Part shown: positions 5,145-23,551 of the stretch, one piece after another
Layout of the letters: each line of letters starts with the position of its first letter
How positions within the stretch are numbered: position 1 is the first letter of the stretch
Source: Nostoc sp. PCC 7120 = FACHB-418
Lineage (GTDB): Bacteria; Cyanobacteriota; Cyanobacteriia; Cyanobacteriales; Nostocaceae
DNA length: 32,000 nucleotides
Assembly (NCBI RefSeq): GCF_000009705.1
Contig: NC_003272.1
Coordinates: 4,410,001-4,442,000, forward strand
Direction of reading: 5' to 3'
Notes under the pieces: model-generated
Database searches by the model: none
What the model saw: only the letters and a program-made list of their open reading frames with translations
Told to the model about the DNA's origin: nothing
Program-made: the position numbers and the translations under genes

Positions 5145-6914
5145 ATGACAATTATTCATGGAACAAATAGCAATGACTATCTCTATGGTGGTGATGAGAG
5201 CGATACCATCAAAGGATTTGCGGGATATGACTATCTATATGGCGGCTTAGGTGATGACTATCTATATGGCGGCTTAGATAATGACAAACTCTACGGCGGC
5301 TTAGGTAATGACAAACTCTATGGTGGTGAAGGTAATGATAATTTAAACGGAGAACAAGGTAATAATAGCCTATACGGTGAAGCAGGCGATGATACTTTAG
5401 ATGCAGGTAACTCCACTGGGAACAACCTTTTAGATGGTGGAGAGGGAAATGATGAAATTTACGTTTATAGTTCCAGTGGAAATAACACCCTCAAGGGTGG
5501 AGTGGGAAATGATATTTTAGATGTTCGCTTTTCCTATGGAAAGAATATCTTAGATGGTGGTTCTGGAAATGATCAGCTTTATGCTCGCTATTCCCAAGGA
5601 AACAATACTCTCCGGGGTGGAAGTGGAGATGATTATCTCGGAGTTGATTTGTCTGCGGGGAATAACGTCCTTAATGGAGATGATGGAAATGACATCCTTG
5701 ATGTTAGTTATCAATGGAAAGGCAAGAATATAGTTTCCGGTGGAAATGGAAATGATATTTTTTATGCCTATGGAGTTCAGGGTGCTAACACTCTCAATGG
5801 TGGTAGTGGTGACGACTCTTTCTACATCAGTAGCCCAAGTGCAGACACCGTTGTGCATCCCTTGGTAACTCAAACAGTTGATGGAGGAATAGGTAATGAT
5901 TACTTGTACATTGACTATAGTACTGCGATCGCTGGCATCACCTCAAGTTTCAACACCACTACTAAGCAAGGTTTAATTACCGCCGACACCAATCAAGTCC
6001 GCTACAAAAATATCGAACGATTGAATATCATCGGCACATCCCATGATGACATTATTGTAGGGGGCAACAGCGACGATATCATTGATGGCGGTAGTGGGGG
6101 TAATGATACCCTCAACGGCGGTGCAGGTAATGACATCTTAATTATTAGAGACAATTCACGTAGTCACAATACTGTTTATGGTGGTGCAGGAAACGACTCT
6201 TTATATGCAAACGGTACTGCTGGAACGAACCTACTAGATGGTGGCGATGGCAATGATTATCTGTCTGCTAAGAATAATTATTCCTACTTCTTCAACGCCA
6301 GTCAGACTCTAATTGGTGGGGCAGGTGATGATACCTTGGATGTTAGCGGTTCCTATGGTAACAACTTCCTTTATGGAGGTGCAGGTAATGATTTCCTTTA
6401 CGCAGACTATTCAGTTGGCCTCCATAGACTAGATGGTGGTGATGGAGACGATTATCTATCTGCGAAAAGCTCCAGCAGCCGCTTTATCATCAACACTCAT
6501 ATTCTGGATGGCGGTGCAGGTAATGATATCTTGGATGTTGGCTCTGCGCGTGCCAAGAATAAGCTAATGGGCGGTACAGGTGATGATATCCTGATTGGTG
6601 GTTTAAATGAGGATACCTTTGTTTTCAAAAATTATCATGAAGGGGTTGATCGTATCTACAACTTCGATCATCTAGACCGCATTCAAATATGTGCTGTAGG
6701 TTTCGGTGGTGACTTATCACCAGATTCACTTTCAGTTGGTCAGTTCACCCTCGGCACAGTTGCTACAACAAATGACCAACGATTTATTTACGACACAAGT
6801 ACTGGAGCGCTTTACTTTGACCAAGATGGTAACGGTAGCGGATTTAATCAGGTAAAATTTGCCCAACTAGACGGTATACCTTCACTCAGTGTCAGCAATT
6901 TTGTGGTGGTTTAA
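5145..6914 (+). CDS. RTX-type (hemolysin-type) calcium-binding repeat protein, 589 aa
   Basis: Dozens of GGxGNDxL nonapeptides, mostly alternating with a degenerate xxxxGxNxL unit (~18-19 aa period). There is no N-terminal signal peptide. The non-repeat C-terminal ~110 aa includes ALYFDQDGNGSGFNQVKFAQL. AGGGAG lies 8 nt upstream of the ATG. Confidence 0.85.
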   Translation: MTIIHGTNSNDYLYGGDESDTIKGFAGYDYLYGGLGDDYLYGGLDNDKLYGGLGNDKLYGGEGNDNLNGEQGNNSLYGEAGDDTLDAGNSTGNNLLDGGEGNDEIYVYSSSGNNTLKGGVGNDILDVRFSYGKNILDGGSGNDQLYARYSQGNNTLRGGSGDDYLGVDLSAGNNVLNGDDGNDILDVSYQWKGKNIVSGGNGNDIFYAYGVQGANTLNGGSGDDSFYISSPSADTVVHPLVTQTVDGGIGNDYLYIDYSTAIAGITSSFNTTTKQGLITADTNQVRYKNIERLNIIGTSHDDIIVGGNSDDIIDGGSGGNDTLNGGAGNDILIIRDNSRSHNTVYGGAGNDSLYANGTAGTNLLDGGDGNDYLSAKNNYSYFFNASQTLIGGAGDDTLDVSGSYGNNFLYGGAGNDFLYADYSVGLHRLDGGDGDDYLSAKSSSSRFIINTHILDGGAGNDILDVGSARAKNKLMGGTGDDILIGGLNEDTFVFKNYHEGVDRIYNFDHLDRIQICAVGFGGDLSPDSLSVGQFTLGTVATTNDQRFIYDTSTGALYFDQDGNGSGFNQVKFAQLDGIPSLSVSNFVVV

Positions 6915-8688: not shown

Positions 8689-8718
8689 TTGCCATTGGGG
8701 GCTATTCTTCGGTAGATT
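8689..8718 (+). promoter_or_regulatory. putative sigma70-type groESL promoter (-35 TTGCCA, -10 TAGATT, 18-nt spacer)
   Basis: TTGCCA at 8689-8694 and TAGATT at 8713-8718. The -10 overlaps the first 2 nt of CIRCE. Confidence 0.5.
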
Positions 8719-8743
8719 AGCACTCAGGAGTTGAGAGTGCTAA
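8717..8743 (+). promoter_or_regulatory. CIRCE operator (HrcA binding site), perfect consensus
   Basis: TTAGCACTC-aggagttga-GAGTGCTAA is an exact match to the TTAGCACTC-N9-GAGTGCTAA consensus. It ends 18 nt before the groES ATG. Confidence 0.95.
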
Positions 8744-9162: not shown

Positions 9163-10803
<1,641 letters not shown>

Positions 10804-10829
10804 TATTCTGTAGTCACATAAGTTTAAAA

Positions 10830-10866
10830 AATAGCTGCTTCCACAAAGGAAGTAGCTATTTTTTTC
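10830..10866 (+). terminator. intrinsic terminator of groESL
   Basis: aatagctgcttcc (10830-10842), loop acaaa, ggaagtagctatt (10848-10860) with one G.U pair, followed by a T-run. An A-run upstream would allow bidirectional use. Confidence 0.8.
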
Positions 10867-10907
10867 AATCAAATATAAAGGTACAAGGGACAATGTAGGA
10901 ATAAAAT

Positions 10908-11957
10908 ATGAAAGAGAAAGACGTAAAAATACTTTGGGGTCGTTCTGGAAATCGATGTGCTATTTGCAAAATTGAATTAACACCTGTTGGTTCAAAAAGC
11001 GTACTAGGCGAAATGGCTCATATTATTGCTGATTCACCTCAAGGCCCTCGCGGAGATAGTCACCTTACTTCTGAACAAAGAAATGAATACGATAATCTAA
11101 TTCTTTTATGTCCAACACATCATACCTTAATCGATAAAAATGAAGAAGAATGGACAGTAGAAAAATTAAGAATTATCAAGTCAGAACATGAAAATTGGGT
11201 TTCTAAGCAACTGAGTAACAACAATATTTATATTAATTCAATTGATAATTCAAAGTTTATTGAATCTAGAGAAAAATCATGGATTAGTTTCTCTGATAAT
11301 AAACTCTGGTTTATAACAAGTCTTACACCTCTTCATATTTATGAAGACAGTATTGATCCTTTAACACCAGAGTTATATAGCCTAATCAAGAGCTTGAGTT
11401 TACCTAAGTTTAATGGCTATTTTATGTTTTCAGATACTTTGAATCAATATAATACAGTACCTAATGAATACGGAATTATTAATCAAGAATCCCCAAACGA
11501 AGTCCAAAACAAACTTGGTCATAAAATTCAAGTTTTTAGAAACGGTCACTGTGAATTCTTAATGTGTTTAGAATATCTGAGAACTGGTAGAGATAATTCA
11601 TCTAATGATGTTTTAAAATATGACGATATGAGAAACAGTTTTATTTCCCAGATAGAAGGAATACTAAATATCTGGAGTAAAACTTTACCATTTAATGATA
11701 TGTTATTAACAGTAATGATGACTAATACTACTTATATCAGCTTATATTCGGGTCAACAAACATATAATGGTTATTTACTAGGAACTCCAGTAACTTCACC
11801 AACACTGAAATACAGTAGAGTTATTAATAAAACAGAAAAGCTACAATTTTTGCAGGATTTAGTAATCAAAAGGTTTGTGAACTACTTTGGGTTAAATATT
11901 AACAGTGTGTTTGCTGAAAATGGAAATATTAATTTGCCTAAGATACTTTATTACTAG
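10908..11957 (+). CDS. HNH endonuclease domain (aa ~15-85) fused to an unrecognised ~240-aa C-terminal domain
   Basis: CAIC(17-20)...AHII(H38)...NLILLCPTHHTLID (N63, C68, H71/H72) is a CxxC/CxxH zinc-finger HNH signature. The rest is rich in N/S/I/K/Y with no motif I recognise. The gene is strongly AT-rich. Confidence 0.75.
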   Translation: MKEKDVKILWGRSGNRCAICKIELTPVGSKSVLGEMAHIIADSPQGPRGDSHLTSEQRNEYDNLILLCPTHHTLIDKNEEEWTVEKLRIIKSEHENWVSKQLSNNNIYINSIDNSKFIESREKSWISFSDNKLWFITSLTPLHIYEDSIDPLTPELYSLIKSLSLPKFNGYFMFSDTLNQYNTVPNEYGIINQESPNEVQNKLGHKIQVFRNGHCEFLMCLEYLRTGRDNSSNDVLKYDDMRNSFISQIEGILNIWSKTLPFNDMLLTVMMTNTTYISLYSGQQTYNGYLLGTPVTSPTLKYSRVINKTEKLQFLQDLVIKRFVNYFGLNINSVFAENGNINLPKILYY

Positions 11958-12208
11958 CAATCAATCTTTGTGCTATGAGACCTCCAAGTAAATAACTATT
12001 CCCTCGCTATGGCAACCTGGAGGATTGGTGAGGCTAGGCGAGAAAGAGTCTCTTCATCGTCTTCATACTCCCATAGAATAATTGAATTTTGGGAAGTCCC
12101 TATGGCTAATTTCTGCTATCTCAAATTCTCAATTAAGGACATAGTCTAATTCGCCAATTTTTATGGGGTCATATTATGTGCAATTCTTTAATTCATCAAG
12201 ACATAAGT

Positions 12209-12736
12209 TCAACTTGCAGCCAAAAGTTCATCAAGTTTATTTTTTAAGTCTGGGGATACCATTAATGGATTGTAAACTTCTCCCTCATAAGGTTGCCAAA
12301 CATAACCAGAACTAAAAAGTCTAAAAACTTGTAATGTTTCAACTTCCTGCTCAATTTTTTTGGCTAACACTAATCCTGGGATAGATAAATTAGGTAAGTC
12401 TTCAATCAGTTCACTATAGGTTCTAAATTCATCCACTTCTACACCTACTAAAGCATAACGAAATGGTGGGGCAATACGTAGATGTTTATAGAGTCAAATA
12501 CCTAATTCTGTCATTAAATAAGCACTTTCAGGACTATCTATTCCCATTTCACTAATATTATTGGGATAAACGCGACACCACCAATTGTTTTCGATATCTT
12601 GAAAAGTATCTGCACGACATAGGCATGGGCTACCATTTGAGAGTATCAATATTTGACCCATAAAATGTTGAGCAAATTTTATGGCACTGATTTCTTCAGA
12701 TCCACATTCTGCTGATAAGCTAAATATCCATGCCAT
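12209..12736 (-). pseudogene. ~175-codon reading frame of unknown function interrupted by a single in-frame TGA (12494-12496)
   Basis: ORFs 12494..12736 and 12209..12436 are in the same frame (both start positions are congruent to 1 mod 3). Translation continues sensibly across the stop: ...LMTELGI*LYKHLRIAPPFRYALVGVEVDEFRTY... The second ORF's listed start is only a GTG. Confidence 0.6.
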
Positions 12737-12799
12737 TTCTGTAGCCTCCTATTGTTATATTTCTAAATATTATTGATTACTAATTTTGCAGAAACTTAA

Positions 12800-13989: not shown

Positions 13990-14316
13990 ATGATTCCAGG
14001 GGAAATAATTACACCAAGCGGGGAAATTGAATTAAATGCTGGTCGTGATACTGTAAAATTGCTGGTTGCTAATACAGGAGATAGACCAATTCAAGTTGGT
14101 TCCCATTTTCATTTTTATGAAGTTAATTATGCGTTAATTTTTGATAGGGAATTGGCGTTAGGAATGCGTCTGGATATTCCTGCGGGGACGGCGGTTAGGT
14201 TTGAACCTGGGGATGAGAAGGAAGTGAGTTTAGTTCCTTTGGTTGGGAGTCGTCGGGTTTATGGGTTTAATGGGAGGGTGAATGGGGAAATTAACGCAGA
14301 GGGGCGCGGAGGTTAG
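13990..14316 (+). CDS. ureB: urease subunit beta
   Basis: 108 aa. MIPGEI...[14 protein letters not shown]...GDEKEV.LV. The last residues (AEGRGG) and the stop codon are encoded inside the left inverted repeat of the downstream cassette. Confidence 0.94.
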
Positions 14317-14320
14317 CGCG
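14295..14320. repeat. left 26-bp inverted repeat flanking the GxxExxY gene
   Basis: cgcagaggggcgcggaggttagcgcg matches the reverse complement of 14741-14766 at 25 of 26 positions. Confidence 0.85.
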
Positions 14321-14333
14321 GAGGGGTGCGGAG

Positions 14334-14726
14334 TTAGAGGTTGTTGGCTACGCGTTTGATGCCTTCTTTGAGGTGGAGGACTTTAAAGTTGAGGAGGAGT
14401 GCGAGTTTAGAATTAGTGAGTTTTAAATTAGTGAGTTTTAAATAAGTTAGAAGTTGTACTGCGTGAATGGGTTTAAGAGATTCCACAGATTTGATTTCAA
14501 TAATTACTTTATTTTCTACTATTAAATCCAATCGATAAACACAATCTAATTCCACTTCTTTATACACCAAAGGTACGGGAATTTGTCTACCCACTCTAAG
14601 TCCCTCCCGCCTCAACTCATAAAACAAACACTCCTCATAAGCCGACTCCGACAACCCTGGCCCCAACACCGTATGCACCCTCATCCCACACCCAATTATC
14701 ATCCCACTCAAATCATTCTCCTCCAT
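14334..14726 (-). CDS. GxxExxY family protein (PD-(D/E)xK nuclease fold), antisense inside the urease cluster
   Basis: GLSESAYE is the GxxExxY signature. D in YRLDLIV plus EIK in VIIEIKSV gives a D...ExK nuclease motif. Length (130 aa) is typical of the family. Confidence 0.8.
14411..14440. repeat. perfect 15-bp tandem duplication (aattagtgagtttta x2) inside the GxxExxY CDS
   Basis: Read directly. It is in-frame and yields [10 protein letters not shown] in the protein. The flanks 14403-14410 and 14441-14445 are degenerate partial copies. Confidence 0.9.
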
Positions 14727-14740
14727 TCTCCTCTATCCTT

Positions 14741-14766
14741 CGCGCTAACCTCCGCGCCCCTCCGCG
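14741..14766. repeat. right 26-bp inverted repeat flanking the GxxExxY gene
   Basis: cgcgctaacctccgcgcccctccgcg. It ends 28 nt before the ureC ATG. Confidence 0.85.
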
Positions 14767-14794
14767 TTTCAATCTTAACCTCAAGGAATACACC

Positions 14795-16501
14795 ATGCCC
14801 TACAGAATGTCCCGCCAAGCCTACGCTGAAACCTACGGCCCCACAGTAGGCGATCGCATCCGACTTGCTGATACAGAATTATTTATACAAGTAGAGCAAG
14901 ACTTCACAACCTACGGCGATGAGGTGAAATTCGGCGGTGGTAAAGTCATTAGAGATGGGATGGGACAATCTCCCATTGCTAACGCCGATGGTGCAGTAGA
15001 TTTAGTCATTACGAATGCTTTAATCCTCGATTGGTGGGGGATTGTCAAAGCAGATATCGGCATTAAAGATGGCAAAATATTTAAAATTGGGAAAGCCGGG
15101 AATCCCTATATTCAAGATCATGTAGATATTATTATCGGCCCTGGAACCGAAGCCTTAGCGGGGGAAGGAATGATTCTCACGGCTGGCGGTATTGATACCC
15201 ATATTCATTTTATTTGTCCCCAACAAATTGAAGTAGCGATCGCCTCCGGTATCACTACTATGATTGGCGGCGGTACAGGCCCAGCCACAGGAACCAACGC
15301 CACCACCTGCACCCCCGGCCCTTGGAATATGTACCGGATGCTGCAAGCGGCTGATGCGTTTCCTATGAACTTAGGATTTTTAGGTAAAGGTAACGCCAGT
15401 CAACCTCAAGGCTTAGTAGAACAAATTTTTGCGGGTGCAATTGGTTTAAAGCTGCACGAAGATTGGGGAACCACACCCGCCACCATTGATACTTGCTTGA
15501 CTGTAGCCGACGAATACGACGTACAAGTGGCCATTCACACCGACACCCTCAACGAAGCCGGATTTGTCGAAGATACCATCGCCGCTTTTAAAAATCGCGC
15601 CATCCATACTTACCACACCGAAGGCGCAGGCGGTGGACACGCACCAGATATTATCAAAGTCTGTGGACAAGCCAACGTTCTTCCATCTTCCACCAACCCT
15701 ACCCGCCCTTACACCGTCAACACCTTAGACGAACACCTCGATATGTTGATGGTATGTCATCACCTTGATCCAGCGATCGCTGAAGATGTGGCTTTTGCTG
15801 AATCCCGCATCCGCCGCGAAACCATCGCCGCCGAAGATATTCTCCATGATTTAGGCGCGTTTAGTATGATTGCTTCCGATTCCCAAGCTATGGGCAGAGT
15901 AGGGGAAGTAATAATTCGCACTTGGCAGACATCCCACAAAATGAAGGTGCAACGGGGAAGCCTTACCGGAGATGCTGAAGCAGACAATTTAAGAGCTAAA
16001 AGATATGTTGCTAAATACACAATCAATCCGGCAATTACGCATGGAATCGCTCAGTATGTAGGTTCTGTAGAAGCAGGTAAACTTGCAGATTTATGTTTGT
16101 GGCGACCAGCGTTTTTTGGTGTCAAACCAGAGATAGTCATTAAAGGCGGGATGATTGCTTGGTCACAAATGGGTGATGCTAACGCCAGCATTCCCACACC
16201 GCAACCTGTGCATATGCGTCCCATGTTTGGTAGTTTTGCAGGTGCGAGAAATGCCACATCTTTAACCTTTGTTTCCCAAGCCGCTTTAGAAAGAGAAATT
16301 CCTCAGCAATTGGGTTTACGAAAATCAGCAGTCGCAGTTTCTGGAACTCGCCAATTAACTAAACAGGATATGAAACTGAATGATGCCTTACCTCATATAG
16401 AAGTAGATTCAGAATCCTATGAAGTTAGAGCCGATGGGGAATTGTTGACTTGTGAACCTGCAACAGTGTTACCAATGGCGCAGAGGTATTTTTTATTTTA
16501 A
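14795..16501 (+). CDS. ureC: urease subunit alpha
   Basis: 568 aa. [16 protein letters not shown] (carbamylated Lys), HTDTLNE, MVCHHLD. Confidence 0.97.
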
Positions 16502-21601: not shown

Positions 21602-23551
21602 ATGGCAAACTACTGGGCGATCGCCATAGGCGTTAATCAATATCAATTATTTCAACCTTTACTTTGCGCCCAAGCCGATGCCGAGGCGCTAAAGGACTTT
21701 TTGGTTCACCAAGCAGGTTTTGTCAACCAACGCTGCTTGCTCATGACGGATACATCGCCACCAATTGACGATAGATCCACCTATCCAACTAAAGAAAATA
21801 TATTGCTGTTGCTGGAAGATTTAGCCGCAGCTTGTTGGCAGCCAGAAGACCATTTATGGTTCTTCTTTAGCGGTTATGGAGTCAACTACAACGGCAGAGA
21901 CTATTTAATGCCCACAGAAGGCGACCCCAAGCTGGTAGAAGAAACTGGCATAGAAATGCGATCGCTGATGCAAAGTTTGCAGCTAGCTAACCTCAATGTT
22001 TTGCTGCTGTTTGATATCAACCGTGCTTCTGCAAGCTTTGGGGATATTCCCGTGGGCAAAGAAATCATCGAACTAGCTGAAGAACTACAACTGTCCACCA
22101 TTCTTTCCTGTCAACCAGACCAGTTTTCTCAGGAAAGTAGAGAGCTAGGCCACGGCATATTTACAGGCGCATTATTATCAGCCTTGCGTTCTGGTTACGG
22201 CAGTAATTTAGGAGAATTAGAAAAATACTTAGGTGTTTTGACTCCCGAACTATCTCAGCATTACTGGCGACCTACACAAAATCCTGTAGCCTTTATCCCC
22301 TTTGAAGAACAGGCAATTTTACCCCCAGTAGAAACAACAAGCAATCCTGAAGTAGAACTGAGCGCCGCCGTACCTAGTACCTTAGAACCTTCGGAAGCCG
22401 AACCTATTATTTTTTCAGAAGAAAGTTTTGCTGTAGCCTTAACAGCACCATCCTTGGGGGAATCCCCTAGAACAACCTCCAAGCCCCCAAAATTTGGGAA
22501 ATGGGAAGACTCTCCCAGGTTTGAAACTAACGGTAATGGCAAATCACCCACTGTCACCCTAGATAGACAGCTATTTCCCATAAATACTGACTTCCCCCAA
22601 CTATACCAACCACCTATACCCGACGAGGAAGAAACAGGCGGGAGGTTCATCCCCAATGCTCCCCAACCCTACATCTCTCGCCTACCAAGCAATAAGCCAG
22701 AGCCTCCATTATGGAGACAGTTTTTGCTGTGGGGAGGTGGAACTATGGTCGTTGTAGCGTTAATTTCTATTATTCTCCTGCGTAATCAAGCCAGAGTTTT
22801 AAGAGCCAGACAGCAACTACCTACTGTTACTAGTGATTCACAAATCATTCAGACTCCCTCAACTCCTCGTCCAGTAGCCAAGGTAGCCCCACTCAATCGA
22901 CCAAAGAATCAGTCAACTGCCCAAATCGCCCCTATTTCTGAATCTAAAAAACGTAATCAAGCCGTATTAGACCTAGCAAAAATGTCTTTGAGACAGACTC
23001 AAGCTAGCGATCTCAGCTTGGCGATCGCCACTGCTAAGAAAATTAAACCCGGCGAACCACTCTACGAACAAGCCCAGGAAAATATTAAGATTTGGACTCG
23101 GATGATTCTCGATTTAGCAGAAGGTCGCGCCAAACAAAGACAATATGCCAATGCGATCGCAGCTGCTAAATTAATTCCCAAAGACGAAGCACTCTATCCC
23201 CAAGCTCAAACAACAATTTCCCAGTGGCGCTCAGAAGCTAAACAGTTTCTAGCTAATCAAACCCTGATAGATGCCGCTAACGCCTTAATTAAACAAGGGC
23301 AAGCTTCCACTTATAACCGTGCCATCGAAGTAGCCAAAAGAGTACCCCAAGGGCAACCAGGCTTTGATTTGGCACAAATATCTATTAATCAATGGAGTGA
23401 AAAAATTCTTGACCTCGCTAAAAATCGCGCCGATCAAGAAAATTTTAGTGCTGCAATTGCAACTGCTACCTTAGTCCCAGAAGGAACAGCTGTCTACGAA
23501 GATGCTCAAGAAGCCATCCAGAAATGGGAAGCGAGAAAAAAGAGTCAATAG
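21602..23551 (+). CDS. orthocaspase (peptidase C14) homologue with a substituted catalytic dyad, one TM helix and a C-terminal 4x repeat domain
   Basis: N-terminal caspase-like fold: YWAIAIGVNQY...FFFSGYG...LLLFDINRAS...GHGIFTGALLSAL. Tyr92 stands where the His is expected and Asn140 where the Cys is expected. TM helix LLWGGGTMVVVALISIILL. Four repeats fit the pattern A-x-A-x-A-x2-(I/V)-P-x5-Y-x2-AQ-x2-I-x2-W. Confidence 0.75.
   Translation: MANYWAIAIGVNQYQLFQPLLCAQADAEALKDFLVHQAGFVNQRCLLMTDTSPPIDDRSTYPTKENILLLLEDLAAACWQPEDHLWFFFSGYGVNYNGRDYLMPTEGDPKLVEETGIEMRSLMQSLQLANLNVLLLFDINRASASFGDIPVGKEIIELAEELQLSTILSCQPDQFSQESRELGHGIFTGALLSALRSGYGSNLGELEKYLGVLTPELSQHYWRPTQNPVAFIPFEEQAILPPVETTSNPEVELSAAVPSTLEPSEAEPIIFSEESFAVALTAPSLGESPRTTSKPPKFGKWEDSPRFETNGNGKSPTVTLDRQLFPINTDFPQLYQPPIPDEEETGGRFIPNAPQPYISRLPSNKPEPPLWRQFLLWGGGTMVVVALISIILLRNQARVLRARQQLPTVTSDSQIIQTPSTPRPVAKVAPLNRPKNQSTAQIAPISESKKRNQAVLDLAKMSLRQTQASDLSLAIATAKKIKPGEPLYEQAQENIKIWTRMILDLAEGRAKQRQYANAIAAAKLIPKDEALYPQAQTTISQWRSEAKQFLANQTLIDAANALIKQGQASTYNRAIEVAKRVPQGQPGFDLAQISINQWSEKILDLAKNRADQENFSAAIATATLVPEGTAVYEDAQEAIQKWEARKKSQ

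Follow-up and report, generated by a model that had tools for sequence, protein, structure and literature searches.

The gene described here lies in a 32,000-nucleotide stretch of Nostoc sp. PCC 7120 = FACHB-418 (contig NC_003272.1, positions 4,410,001 to 4,442,000 of the forward strand), which we call the window and whose own numbering we use throughout. It follows the groESL operon and encodes a protein in which an N-terminal HNH nuclease domain is joined to a long C-terminal region, here named domain X. We refer to gene and protein as HNH-X and examine them as a candidate single-gene defence system. The open reading frame (ORF) exists exactly as the initial annotation gave it (10908-11957, plus strand, ATG start, 349 amino acids (aa)). 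In source records, proteins of this kind are named only 'HNH endonuclease'. The features of the gene and of the region before it are collected in Table 1.

Table 1. Features of the HNH-X gene and of the region upstream (window numbering; residues are those of the HNH-X protein)
Feature	Coordinates	Strand	Remarks
groEL intrinsic terminator	10826..10866	+	17-bp hairpin 10826-10864, T-run ending 10866
AGGAA, Shine-Dalgarno-like	10897..10901	+	6 nt before the ATG; plausible ribosome-binding site on a reading of the sequence
HNH-domain X fusion gene	10908..11957	+	349 codons and stop, ATG start; ORF list and sequence
HNH nuclease domain of the Cap5/SPARHA type, residues 1-105	10908..11222	+	Pfam, PADLOC, PDB and Foldseek matches
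Predicted zinc ligands C17, C20, C68, H71	10956-10958, 10965-10967, 11109-11111, 11118-11120	+	By analogy with Cap5/SPARHA
H38, predicted general base of the HNH	11019..11021	+	Aligned with H46 of 9om4_A; nearly invariant in the family
N63, N of the H-N-H	11094..11096	+	Aligned with N71 of 9om4_A; invariant in 57 sequences
H72, predicted metal-binding last His of the H-N-H	11121..11123	+	Aligned with H80 of 9om4_A; invariant in 57 sequences
Domain X, residues 106-349, alpha+beta, predicted sensor/regulatory module	11223..11954	+	AlphaFold2 model and profile search

The groEL stop codon (10801-10803) is followed by an intrinsic terminator whose RNA fold reaches -22.5 kcal/mol (z = -7.9 against shuffled sequences). 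An A-tract on its 5' side makes this terminator potentially bidirectional, and the hairpin is kept, with compensatory changes, at four other Nostocales loci bearing the same gene. The initial annotation placed the HNH-X start codon 42 nucleotides (nt) past a strong terminator, and this is borne out. It also supposed that the gene is transcribed independently of groESL, which is not established. A promoter scan of the 42-nt gap between terminator and ATG detected no sigma-70-like promoter, and the candidate -10 element, TATAAA at 10874-10879, is not conserved at orthologous loci; heat-shock read-through from groESL may therefore still occur. A perfect CIRCE operator (TTAGCACTC-N9-GAGTGCTAA) lies at 8717-8743, 19 nt upstream of groES, and places the operon that precedes HNH-X under HrcA/heat-shock control. 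It is possible that HNH-X is expressed from a weak promoter of its own, or else by read-through from the CIRCE-controlled groESL.

This setting raises the question of whether HNH-X has anything to do with phages at all. A fused toxin-antitoxin-like or inter-bacterial conflict nuclease, serving plasmid exclusion or a stress-induced DNA degradation tied to heat shock by groESL read-through, might be expected just here: the gene starts 42 nt after the terminator of a heat-shock operon under CIRCE regulation, the arrangement is conserved, and no promoter was detected upstream; the toxin-antitoxin-rich surroundings of homologues point the same way. We nevertheless judge such a role improbable. The groEL terminator is strong, the linkage to groESL is absent outside the cyanobacteria, and the protein has neither a secretion signal nor an adjacent immunity gene. 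Moreover, the repertoire of Cap5-type HNH, TIR, PIN and Schlafen domains found in this family and its relatives is characteristic of anti-phage systems.

The N-terminal domain has a helix near its start (residues 3-9) and a long linker helix at residues 84-103, as well as the H-N-H active site and a CCCH zinc site. The HNH/zinc-finger signature that the initial annotation had recognised is intact in the translation: CAIC corresponds to C17-C20, AHII to A37-I40 (with H38), and NLILLCPTHHTLID to N63-D76, this third motif reading N63-LILLCPTHHTLI-D76. Pfam HNH_2 covers residues 17-77 (E 1e-6; 28.9 bits, the gathering cut-off being 21). The PADLOC matches to the protein, with E-values from 5e-33 to 1e-11, are confined to residues 2-114 and include PDC-M68A (5e-33), SAVED_HNH (1e-28), SduA (5e-16) and CBASS endonuclease effectors. 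The closest PDB sequence is 9om4_A, at 2e-18 with the single sequence and 1.2e-30 with the family profile; it is followed by Cap5 chains (7rwk, 7rwm and 8fm1) at 2e-11 to 1e-18. Foldseek aligns the modelled HNH core with the HNH of Cap5 at probability 1.0, with about 2 Å of root-mean-square deviation across 53 residues. In the short-Argonaute system SPARHA, the protein of entry 9om4 serves as the HNH-APAZ effector (PMC12738770). Judged by sequence and fold, then, the domain is a member of the clade of defence effectors that holds Cap5 (CBASS) and HNH-APAZ (SPARHA), and is not a generic HNH.

Comparison with this clade also identifies the probable catalytic residues. The equivalences given in Table 1 were counted along the alignment to 9om4_A. 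The nuclease activity of AcaSPARHA is abolished by N71A/H80A, and the H53A mutation abolished activity in MllaSPARHA (PMC12738770). By homology, H38 appears to be the histidine mutated in the latter. Among 57 family members C17, C20, C68 and H72 are invariant and H71 is nearly so. This conservation of catalytic residues suggests that the active site is intact and that HNH-X is a nuclease. In Cap5 and SPARHA the HNH is activated when HNH dimers, held together by the N-terminal helix, pair into tetramers, and HNH-APAZ taken by itself acts constitutively on double-stranded DNA (PMC12738770).

The initial annotation could assign no motif to the C-terminal region and saw no repeats in it, and on both counts our searches agree. 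Residues 106-349 have no match in Pfam (2025), NCBIfam (2026), PHROGs, PADLOC (2023) or the PDB sequences, the last searched with the single sequence as well as the family profile. Twenty-five members of a domain-X-only alignment likewise found nothing in Pfam at E<=5. An internal duplication was considered and is ruled out on the sequence level, as the two halves of the domain align in hhalign with a probability of 0.3%. Domain X is rich in Leu, Asn, Ser, Ile and Tyr and slightly acidic, with a median isoelectric point (pI) of 6.0 and a mostly negative net charge.

Modelled alone by AlphaFold2 with 105 homologues, domain X reaches a predicted local distance difference test score (pLDDT) of 93.6 and a predicted template modelling score (pTM) of 0.91. 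The model runs from a long helix through a five-stranded antiparallel section to a beta-alpha-beta4-alpha unit. A Foldseek comparison of this region had been proposed in the initial annotation; against 350,542 PDB chains and BFVD, the model has no match at E<=1e-3. Thus the HNH part is known, while its fusion partner is absent from the sequence libraries above and from the structures of both PDB and BFVD. The matches that recur at the top are TATA-box-binding proteins (TBPs) and S-adenosylmethionine decarboxylase, with E-values of 0.03-0.7, probabilities <0.2 and template modelling (TM) scores of about 0.2, too weak for domain X to be placed in either class. The beta-alpha-beta4-alpha order of the second half does fit the TBP topology, but with structural matches as weak as these (TM about 0.2) the resemblance in the model is only a lead. 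With the full-length model as query, Foldseek returned the Cap5 HNH match and noise, and nothing else.

Despite this lack of relatives in the libraries, domain X is well conserved. It is conserved along its whole length in the 57-sequence alignment and in the domain alignments, and the 35 invariant columns of the former are spread over both domains. Ratios of non-synonymous to synonymous substitution rates (dN/dS) between close orthologues are 0.17-0.27 for the gene and 0.13-0.27 for domain X, values by which both HNH and domain X are under purifying selection. Alignments and model together indicate that domain X is a real, autonomous, conserved and confidently folded module.

Full-length HNH-X is widely scattered and rare. 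A word-index search recovered 711 relatives, and its 120 best matches are all full-length, about 350 aa long and 40-96% identical; at least 120 clusters hold the two-domain protein. When the search was repeated with the profile of a divergent subfamily, only two extra members were recovered. Taking one genome per species, about 24 of 185,579 species have the full-length protein. The carriers come from at least seven lineages, namely Cyanobacteria, Desulfobacterota, Cloacimonadota, Brocadia, Pseudomonadales, Bacteroidota and Anaerolineae, in addition to a PVC bacterium. The guanine-plus-cytosine (GC) content of the gene is 28-30% compared with about 45-49% in groEL and the flanks (30.3% against 47.9% for HNH-X and groEL), and at all loci compared it is 30-34%, or about 30% within genomes of 42% GC. 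With its patchy distribution, its rarity and its low GC, HNH-X behaves as an accessory gene.

The most informative result comes from domain X in other company. Its profile, run against 1.84 billion representative proteins, matches 97 clusters only, and most of these are the HNH fusion or its fragments. In a few others the HNH is replaced by another head: PIN_4 (P0126, E 1e-74), TIR of the TIR_2 or bSEFIR-like kind (P0177, P0186, P0192 and P0214, the head of P0177 matching the bSEFIR defence profile) and Schlafen AlbA_2 (P0201, P0204, P0209, P0210 and P0215). A joint alignment of the HNH, PIN, TIR and Schlafen fusions shows a common core made of a 'TP' strand, an R-x-G-x-x-E motif, an 'FG' motif and a terminal Gly. 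Immune sensor-effector proteins are built in this way, with a conserved module at the C-terminus and toxic domains that can be exchanged at the N-terminus. TIR is an NADase-type and PIN an RNase-type effector, and neither cuts DNA; the logic shared by the domain-X fusions is therefore that of a sensor joined to a toxic effector.

Could domain X instead be a reader of DNA? HNH-X would then be a type IV restriction endonuclease in which domain X recognises modified or hypermodified phage DNA and recruits the HNH, so that the outcome is direct restriction, not abortive infection. Its layout invites the comparison, with an N-terminal nuclease and an unknown C-terminal domain in one gene and no cognate methyltransferase in the window or at most loci. 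Modification-dependent enzymes are modular, count HNH among their nucleases and continue to yield new readers (PMC12191111, PMC12738770). The weak fold resemblances noted above, too, are to the DNA-binding saddle of TBP, although at probability <0.2 and TM about 0.2 they are insignificant. The range of heads is the main obstacle, and makes us consider this explanation unlikely: with DNase, NADase-type, RNase-type and Schlafen-type effectors on one domain, a DNA-targeting specificity role is hard to reconcile, and such a reader would be senseless on TIR or PIN. Being acidic to neutral, domain X is also unlike typical DNA readers, and neither Pfam (25 members) nor Foldseek reveals similarity to SRA, EVE, YTH, ASCH, McrB-N, winged-helix or EndoIII readers. 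Finally, the HNH is of the tetramer-activated Cap5/SPARHA clade, as opposed to the dimeric HNHs of modification-dependent enzymes (PMC12738770).

Sequence comparison shows that the modularity runs both ways, domain X occurring with other effectors and the HNH with other C-termini. In hundreds more genomes the same HNH occurs, about 50-63% identical across residues 1-105, but with another C-terminus; at 50 of 62 loci this is a single, apparently helical domain some 200 aa long. This sister family, with proteins of about 305-320 aa, is much larger (loci L031-L098, e.g. L031:9995-10912 and L067:10001-10915). Its C-termini have no match in PADLOC or Pfam, and some of its copies sit on IMG/VR viral contigs. 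Homology between domain X and the sister C-terminal domain was considered and is ruled out by hhalign (probability 0.5%). At a further locus (L069:9989-10996) the same HNH head is followed by a P-loop kinase-like domain with Guanylate_kin and AAA_33 matches.

Does HNH-X need a partner? An all-against-all clustering of the ORFs around the gene at 29 loci found no partner gene; the only recurrent genes are groESL with its neighbours, in cyanobacteria alone, and IS200-type transposases. The initial annotation had proposed a census of neighbourhoods with defence islands in mind, and defence or mobile islands do surround several homologues, while no gene is consistently adjacent across these loci. 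Known defence genes lie within 8 kb in about five of nine annotated contexts away from groEL, an anecdotal sample. For example, a Gabija-like gajA/gajB pair (ABC-ATPase/OLD-TOPRIM and UvrD helicase) is immediately upstream of one homologue (L108:4212-9062), at a locus that also holds PLD, another HNH and methyltransferases. One plasmid has the gene: in Nitrosococcus halophilus it is directly downstream of a CAP12-PCTIR TIR and an HEPN_AbiU2 (L087:6437-9065). Other contexts contain ParDE, HicAB, a DNA methyltransferase, Uma2 and CHAT-AAA genes; Peptidase_M78, RelBE and transposases; BrnT; or a group II intron reverse transcriptase, a patatin and, 7 kb away, a Cas10-palm/GGDEF gene. The remaining annotated neighbourhoods are unremarkable, and none of those annotated has a PIWI/MID gene. 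In an uncultured cyanobacterium (L003:9153-10253 and L004:1560-2660) an N6_N4 DNA methyltransferase gene follows HNH-X after 70 nt. It is the sole lineage of this kind, and the methyltransferase might be left over by chance from a restriction-modification system or be paired with HNH-X in this lineage alone.

The absence of a partner bears on a further explanation, in which domain X, like SAVED in Cap5, binds a nucleotide messenger made elsewhere in the genome by CBASS, Pycsar or type III CRISPR. Cap5 and the CBASS effectors, the closest characterised proteins, operate in this way, and the set of HNH, TIR and PIN effectors resembles that of the CARF and SAVED ancillary effectors. One homologue even has the Cas10-palm/GGDEF gene 7 kb away. 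Yet the 29 loci have no conserved cyclase or CRISPR gene in their vicinity. Domain X is unlike SAVED and CARF both in sequence and in Foldseek, though the structure library holds Cap5, and the order of elements in its model, mainly antiparallel beta-meanders with long helices, does not look Rossmann-like. We give this explanation little credence.

The position after groESL deserves a separate discussion. Nine of ten cyanobacterial occurrences are directly 3' of groESL, mostly 100-370 nt past the stop codon and in several genera: the window itself, Aliinostoc, Anabaena UHCC 0399, Nostoc CALU 546, Calothrix, Coleofasciculus and one uncultured cyanobacterium. The Symploca copy is the only one away from groESL, and outside the cyanobacteria the 29 loci show no groEL association. 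HNH-X divergence roughly follows that of GroEL. Where GroEL identity is about 97% the HNH-X proteins are 89-95% identical, at 94-95% they are 60-63% identical and at about 90% they are 53-62% identical. We also scanned the 3' flank of groEL in metagenome contigs, using 67 loci of cyanobacterial type with at least 1.3 kb downstream (L113-L232). The first ORF past groEL falls into 50 different clusters in these 67 loci, including Rpn-like (nuclease) and ABC-ATPase-like genes, and HNH-X is present in a single one (L231). The 3' flank of groESL (10804-12799 in the window) is therefore a hypervariable spot for accessory genes in filamentous cyanobacteria, with HNH-X as one cargo among many.

Such a fixed site, taken together with low GC and a patchy distribution, might also be the mark of a selfish homing-type endonuclease or addiction gene spreading at groEL through cyanobacteria, nine times out of ten and in several genera, with no benefit to the host. 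The initial annotation had named homing as an alternative, and our searches do not support it. No family member was found in the 50,697 phage genomes of INPHARED or in any intron or intein context, and the 2.9 million viral contigs of IMG/VR contain no full-length member, only HNH-only relatives being matched there. The HNH-X gene does not lie inside another gene. The association with groEL is absent outside cyanobacteria, and in cyanobacteria it is better explained by the hot spot, as the flank is hypervariable in general. A gene that diverges roughly as GroEL does, with both domains under purifying selection and a C-terminal domain common to TIR, PIN and Schlafen effectors, does not resemble a homing element either. 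We regard this as the least credible of the explanations considered here, and a very improbable one.

Taken together, the clade of the HNH, the swapping of domain X, the lack of a partner gene and the defence neighbourhoods lead us to favour, at somewhat better than even confidence, the interpretation of HNH-X as a stand-alone, one-protein immune nuclease of the abortive-infection type, with effector and sensor in one chain. The initial annotation had suggested a candidate for single-gene defence in which a nuclease effector is coupled to an unknown module for sensing or specificity, and in this form the suggestion stands. In CBASS Cap5 and in SPARHA the HNH is a DNA-degrading suicide effector, which remains silent until a sensor drives dimers into tetramers or filaments. 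In HNH-X, domain X would take the place of SAVED or APAZ and hold the nuclease inactive. A cue derived from infection would bind domain X and cause it to oligomerise, which would join HNH domains through their N-terminal helices and convert dimers into an active, higher-order form. The assembled HNH would then unleash non-specific cleavage of double-stranded DNA. The lack of a conserved partner makes direct sensing of the cue by domain X the most likely case; the cue might be a phage protein or other infection product. Anti-phage function, oligomerisation switch, direct sensing, DNA substrate and the kind of trigger are alike our inferences.

A wider proposal is more tentative, and we would put it forward as possible rather than expected. 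In this proposal domain X has a fold of its own, not described before, and forms a family of compact modules of 240 residues that detect a phage-derived cue unaided and switch on any fused effector, whether HNH, TIR, PIN or Schlafen, by induced oligomerisation. Such proteins would make up a new single-protein immune family, kept in filamentous cyanobacteria at the groESL hot spot.

Several points weigh against the immune interpretation. The window itself is no defence island, containing instead groESL and other housekeeping genes, among them dapA, asd and the genes for urease, trigger factor, RNase J and a tRNA synthetase. The literature on the family, PDC-M68, Nhal_4020 and the combination of domains yields no description of HNH-X, and as our defence library is the PADLOC release of 2023 the family may have been named since. 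Fusions with alternative effectors are few, about 10 clusters, mostly on single metagenomic contigs. The full-length AlphaFold2 model is low in confidence over the HNH part, so that it permits no statement on autoinhibition between the domains. Lastly, domain X has almost no universal polar residue (E216, and R211 in most members), too few for a binding site to be named.

A number of other features of the window may be recorded here. HNH-X has groEL, ureD and two small orphan ORFs as its neighbours. A stretch of low GC reaches from about 10900 to ureD, at about 12800, and the two small ORFs within it are convergent to HNH-X (12209-12436 and 12494-12736, both on the minus strand, 75 and 80 aa). 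They were considered as an immunity or antitoxin pair and rejected, being found only in the closest relatives (L007 and L106) and having no family match. Between ureB and ureC, on the opposite strand, is a gene of the PDDEXK_3 family (PD-(D/E)XK; 14334-14726, minus strand) whose protein has a short tandem repeat. Very strong swings of GC skew (+0.6, then -0.63) flank it at 14050-14850, and the gene appears to have been inserted in the urease cluster. A 649-aa protein (21602-23551, plus strand) begins with a caspase domain (Peptidase_C14) and has a long C-terminus with no assignment; it may be a conflict or cell-death protein of the cyanobacterial orthocaspase type. A 589-aa protein with RTX/haemolysin-type calcium-binding repeats is encoded between tRNA synthetase and response regulator genes (5145-6914, plus strand).

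If the immune interpretation is correct, domain X is a new sensor to be added to those already known to govern suicide nucleases with a Cap5/SPARHA-type HNH. This effector could then also act as a self-contained one-protein system, intermediate between multi-gene signalling, as in CBASS and the short Argonautes, and single-protein sensors. At 349 aa and with a confident model of domain X, HNH-X is small and tractable for studying how a sensor gates a nuclease activated by oligomerisation, and it could supply a trigger-dependent collateral DNase activity. To our knowledge the phage-defence repertoires of cyanobacteria are poorly explored, and our result marks out the 3' flank of groESL as a promising hot spot to mine. 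The defence role of HNH-X is a prediction from comparative genomics, of which there are many for candidate systems, and the family is rare.

How does HNH-X compare with known systems? Type II restriction-modification differs from it, as the window has no methyltransferase and no methyltransferase cluster emerged across the 29 loci. The END nucleases and the modification-dependent (type IV) restriction enzymes with an HNH (PMC12191111) are alike in joining a nuclease to a C-terminal specificity domain in a single gene with no methyltransferase. However, their HNH is of another clade, and domain X is acidic, has no known reader domain and is also found on effectors that are not DNases. PDC-M68A and Shedu SduA give the best PADLOC scores, via the HNH only: the matches end at about residue 115, and the rest of the two profiles (253 and 326 positions, with DUF4263 in SduA) is unmatched. 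For Shedu in particular, the SduA profile meets HNH-X at positions 29-131, its HNH part, and Pfam gives no DUF4263 match.

Single-protein sensor-effectors, such as the fused toxin-antitoxins of the CapRel type, bSEFIR and the Avs/NLR-like proteins headed by TIR, Schlafen or HNH, are similar in combining a sensor with swappable heads in a single, patchily distributed gene. HNH-X differs from these proteins in having no NTPase/STAND module or known sensor fold; domain X is only about 240 aa long and is absent from PADLOC and Pfam. The likeness to CapRel, bSEFIR and Avs-type proteins is one of logic and not of homology.

The closest relationships are with Cap5 and SPARHA. The HNH of Cap5 (CBASS HNH-SAVED; 7rwk, 7rwm, 8fm1/8fmf and 9dif) is homologous in sequence and fold, with N-terminal helix, CCCH zinc site, H-N-H site and trailing helix all shared, and the general plan is the same, with an N-terminal HNH and a C-terminal regulatory domain of roughly 250 aa in a protein of 350-390 aa. 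Domain X, however, is not SAVED: the SAVED_HNH profiles cover residues 2-105 only and Foldseek gives the domain no Cap5 match. Nor is there a CD-NTase or other CBASS gene near HNH-X, in the window or at the 29 loci, and HNH-X is not a member of CBASS. Unlike the SPARHA effector, HNH-X has no APAZ, the profile meeting 9om4_A over the HNH only and no APAZ structure appearing among the Foldseek matches, although the structure library contains such structures; no short pAgo gene adjoins it at any locus, and the sensor lies within the same polypeptide. It is nonetheless HNH-APAZ of SPARHA (9om4; PMC12738770) that provides the best sequence match to the HNH, with the catalytic N71 and H80 aligned to N63 and H72. 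By analogy, activation through the oligomerisation of HNH dimers is likely to be common to HNH-X and SPARHA.

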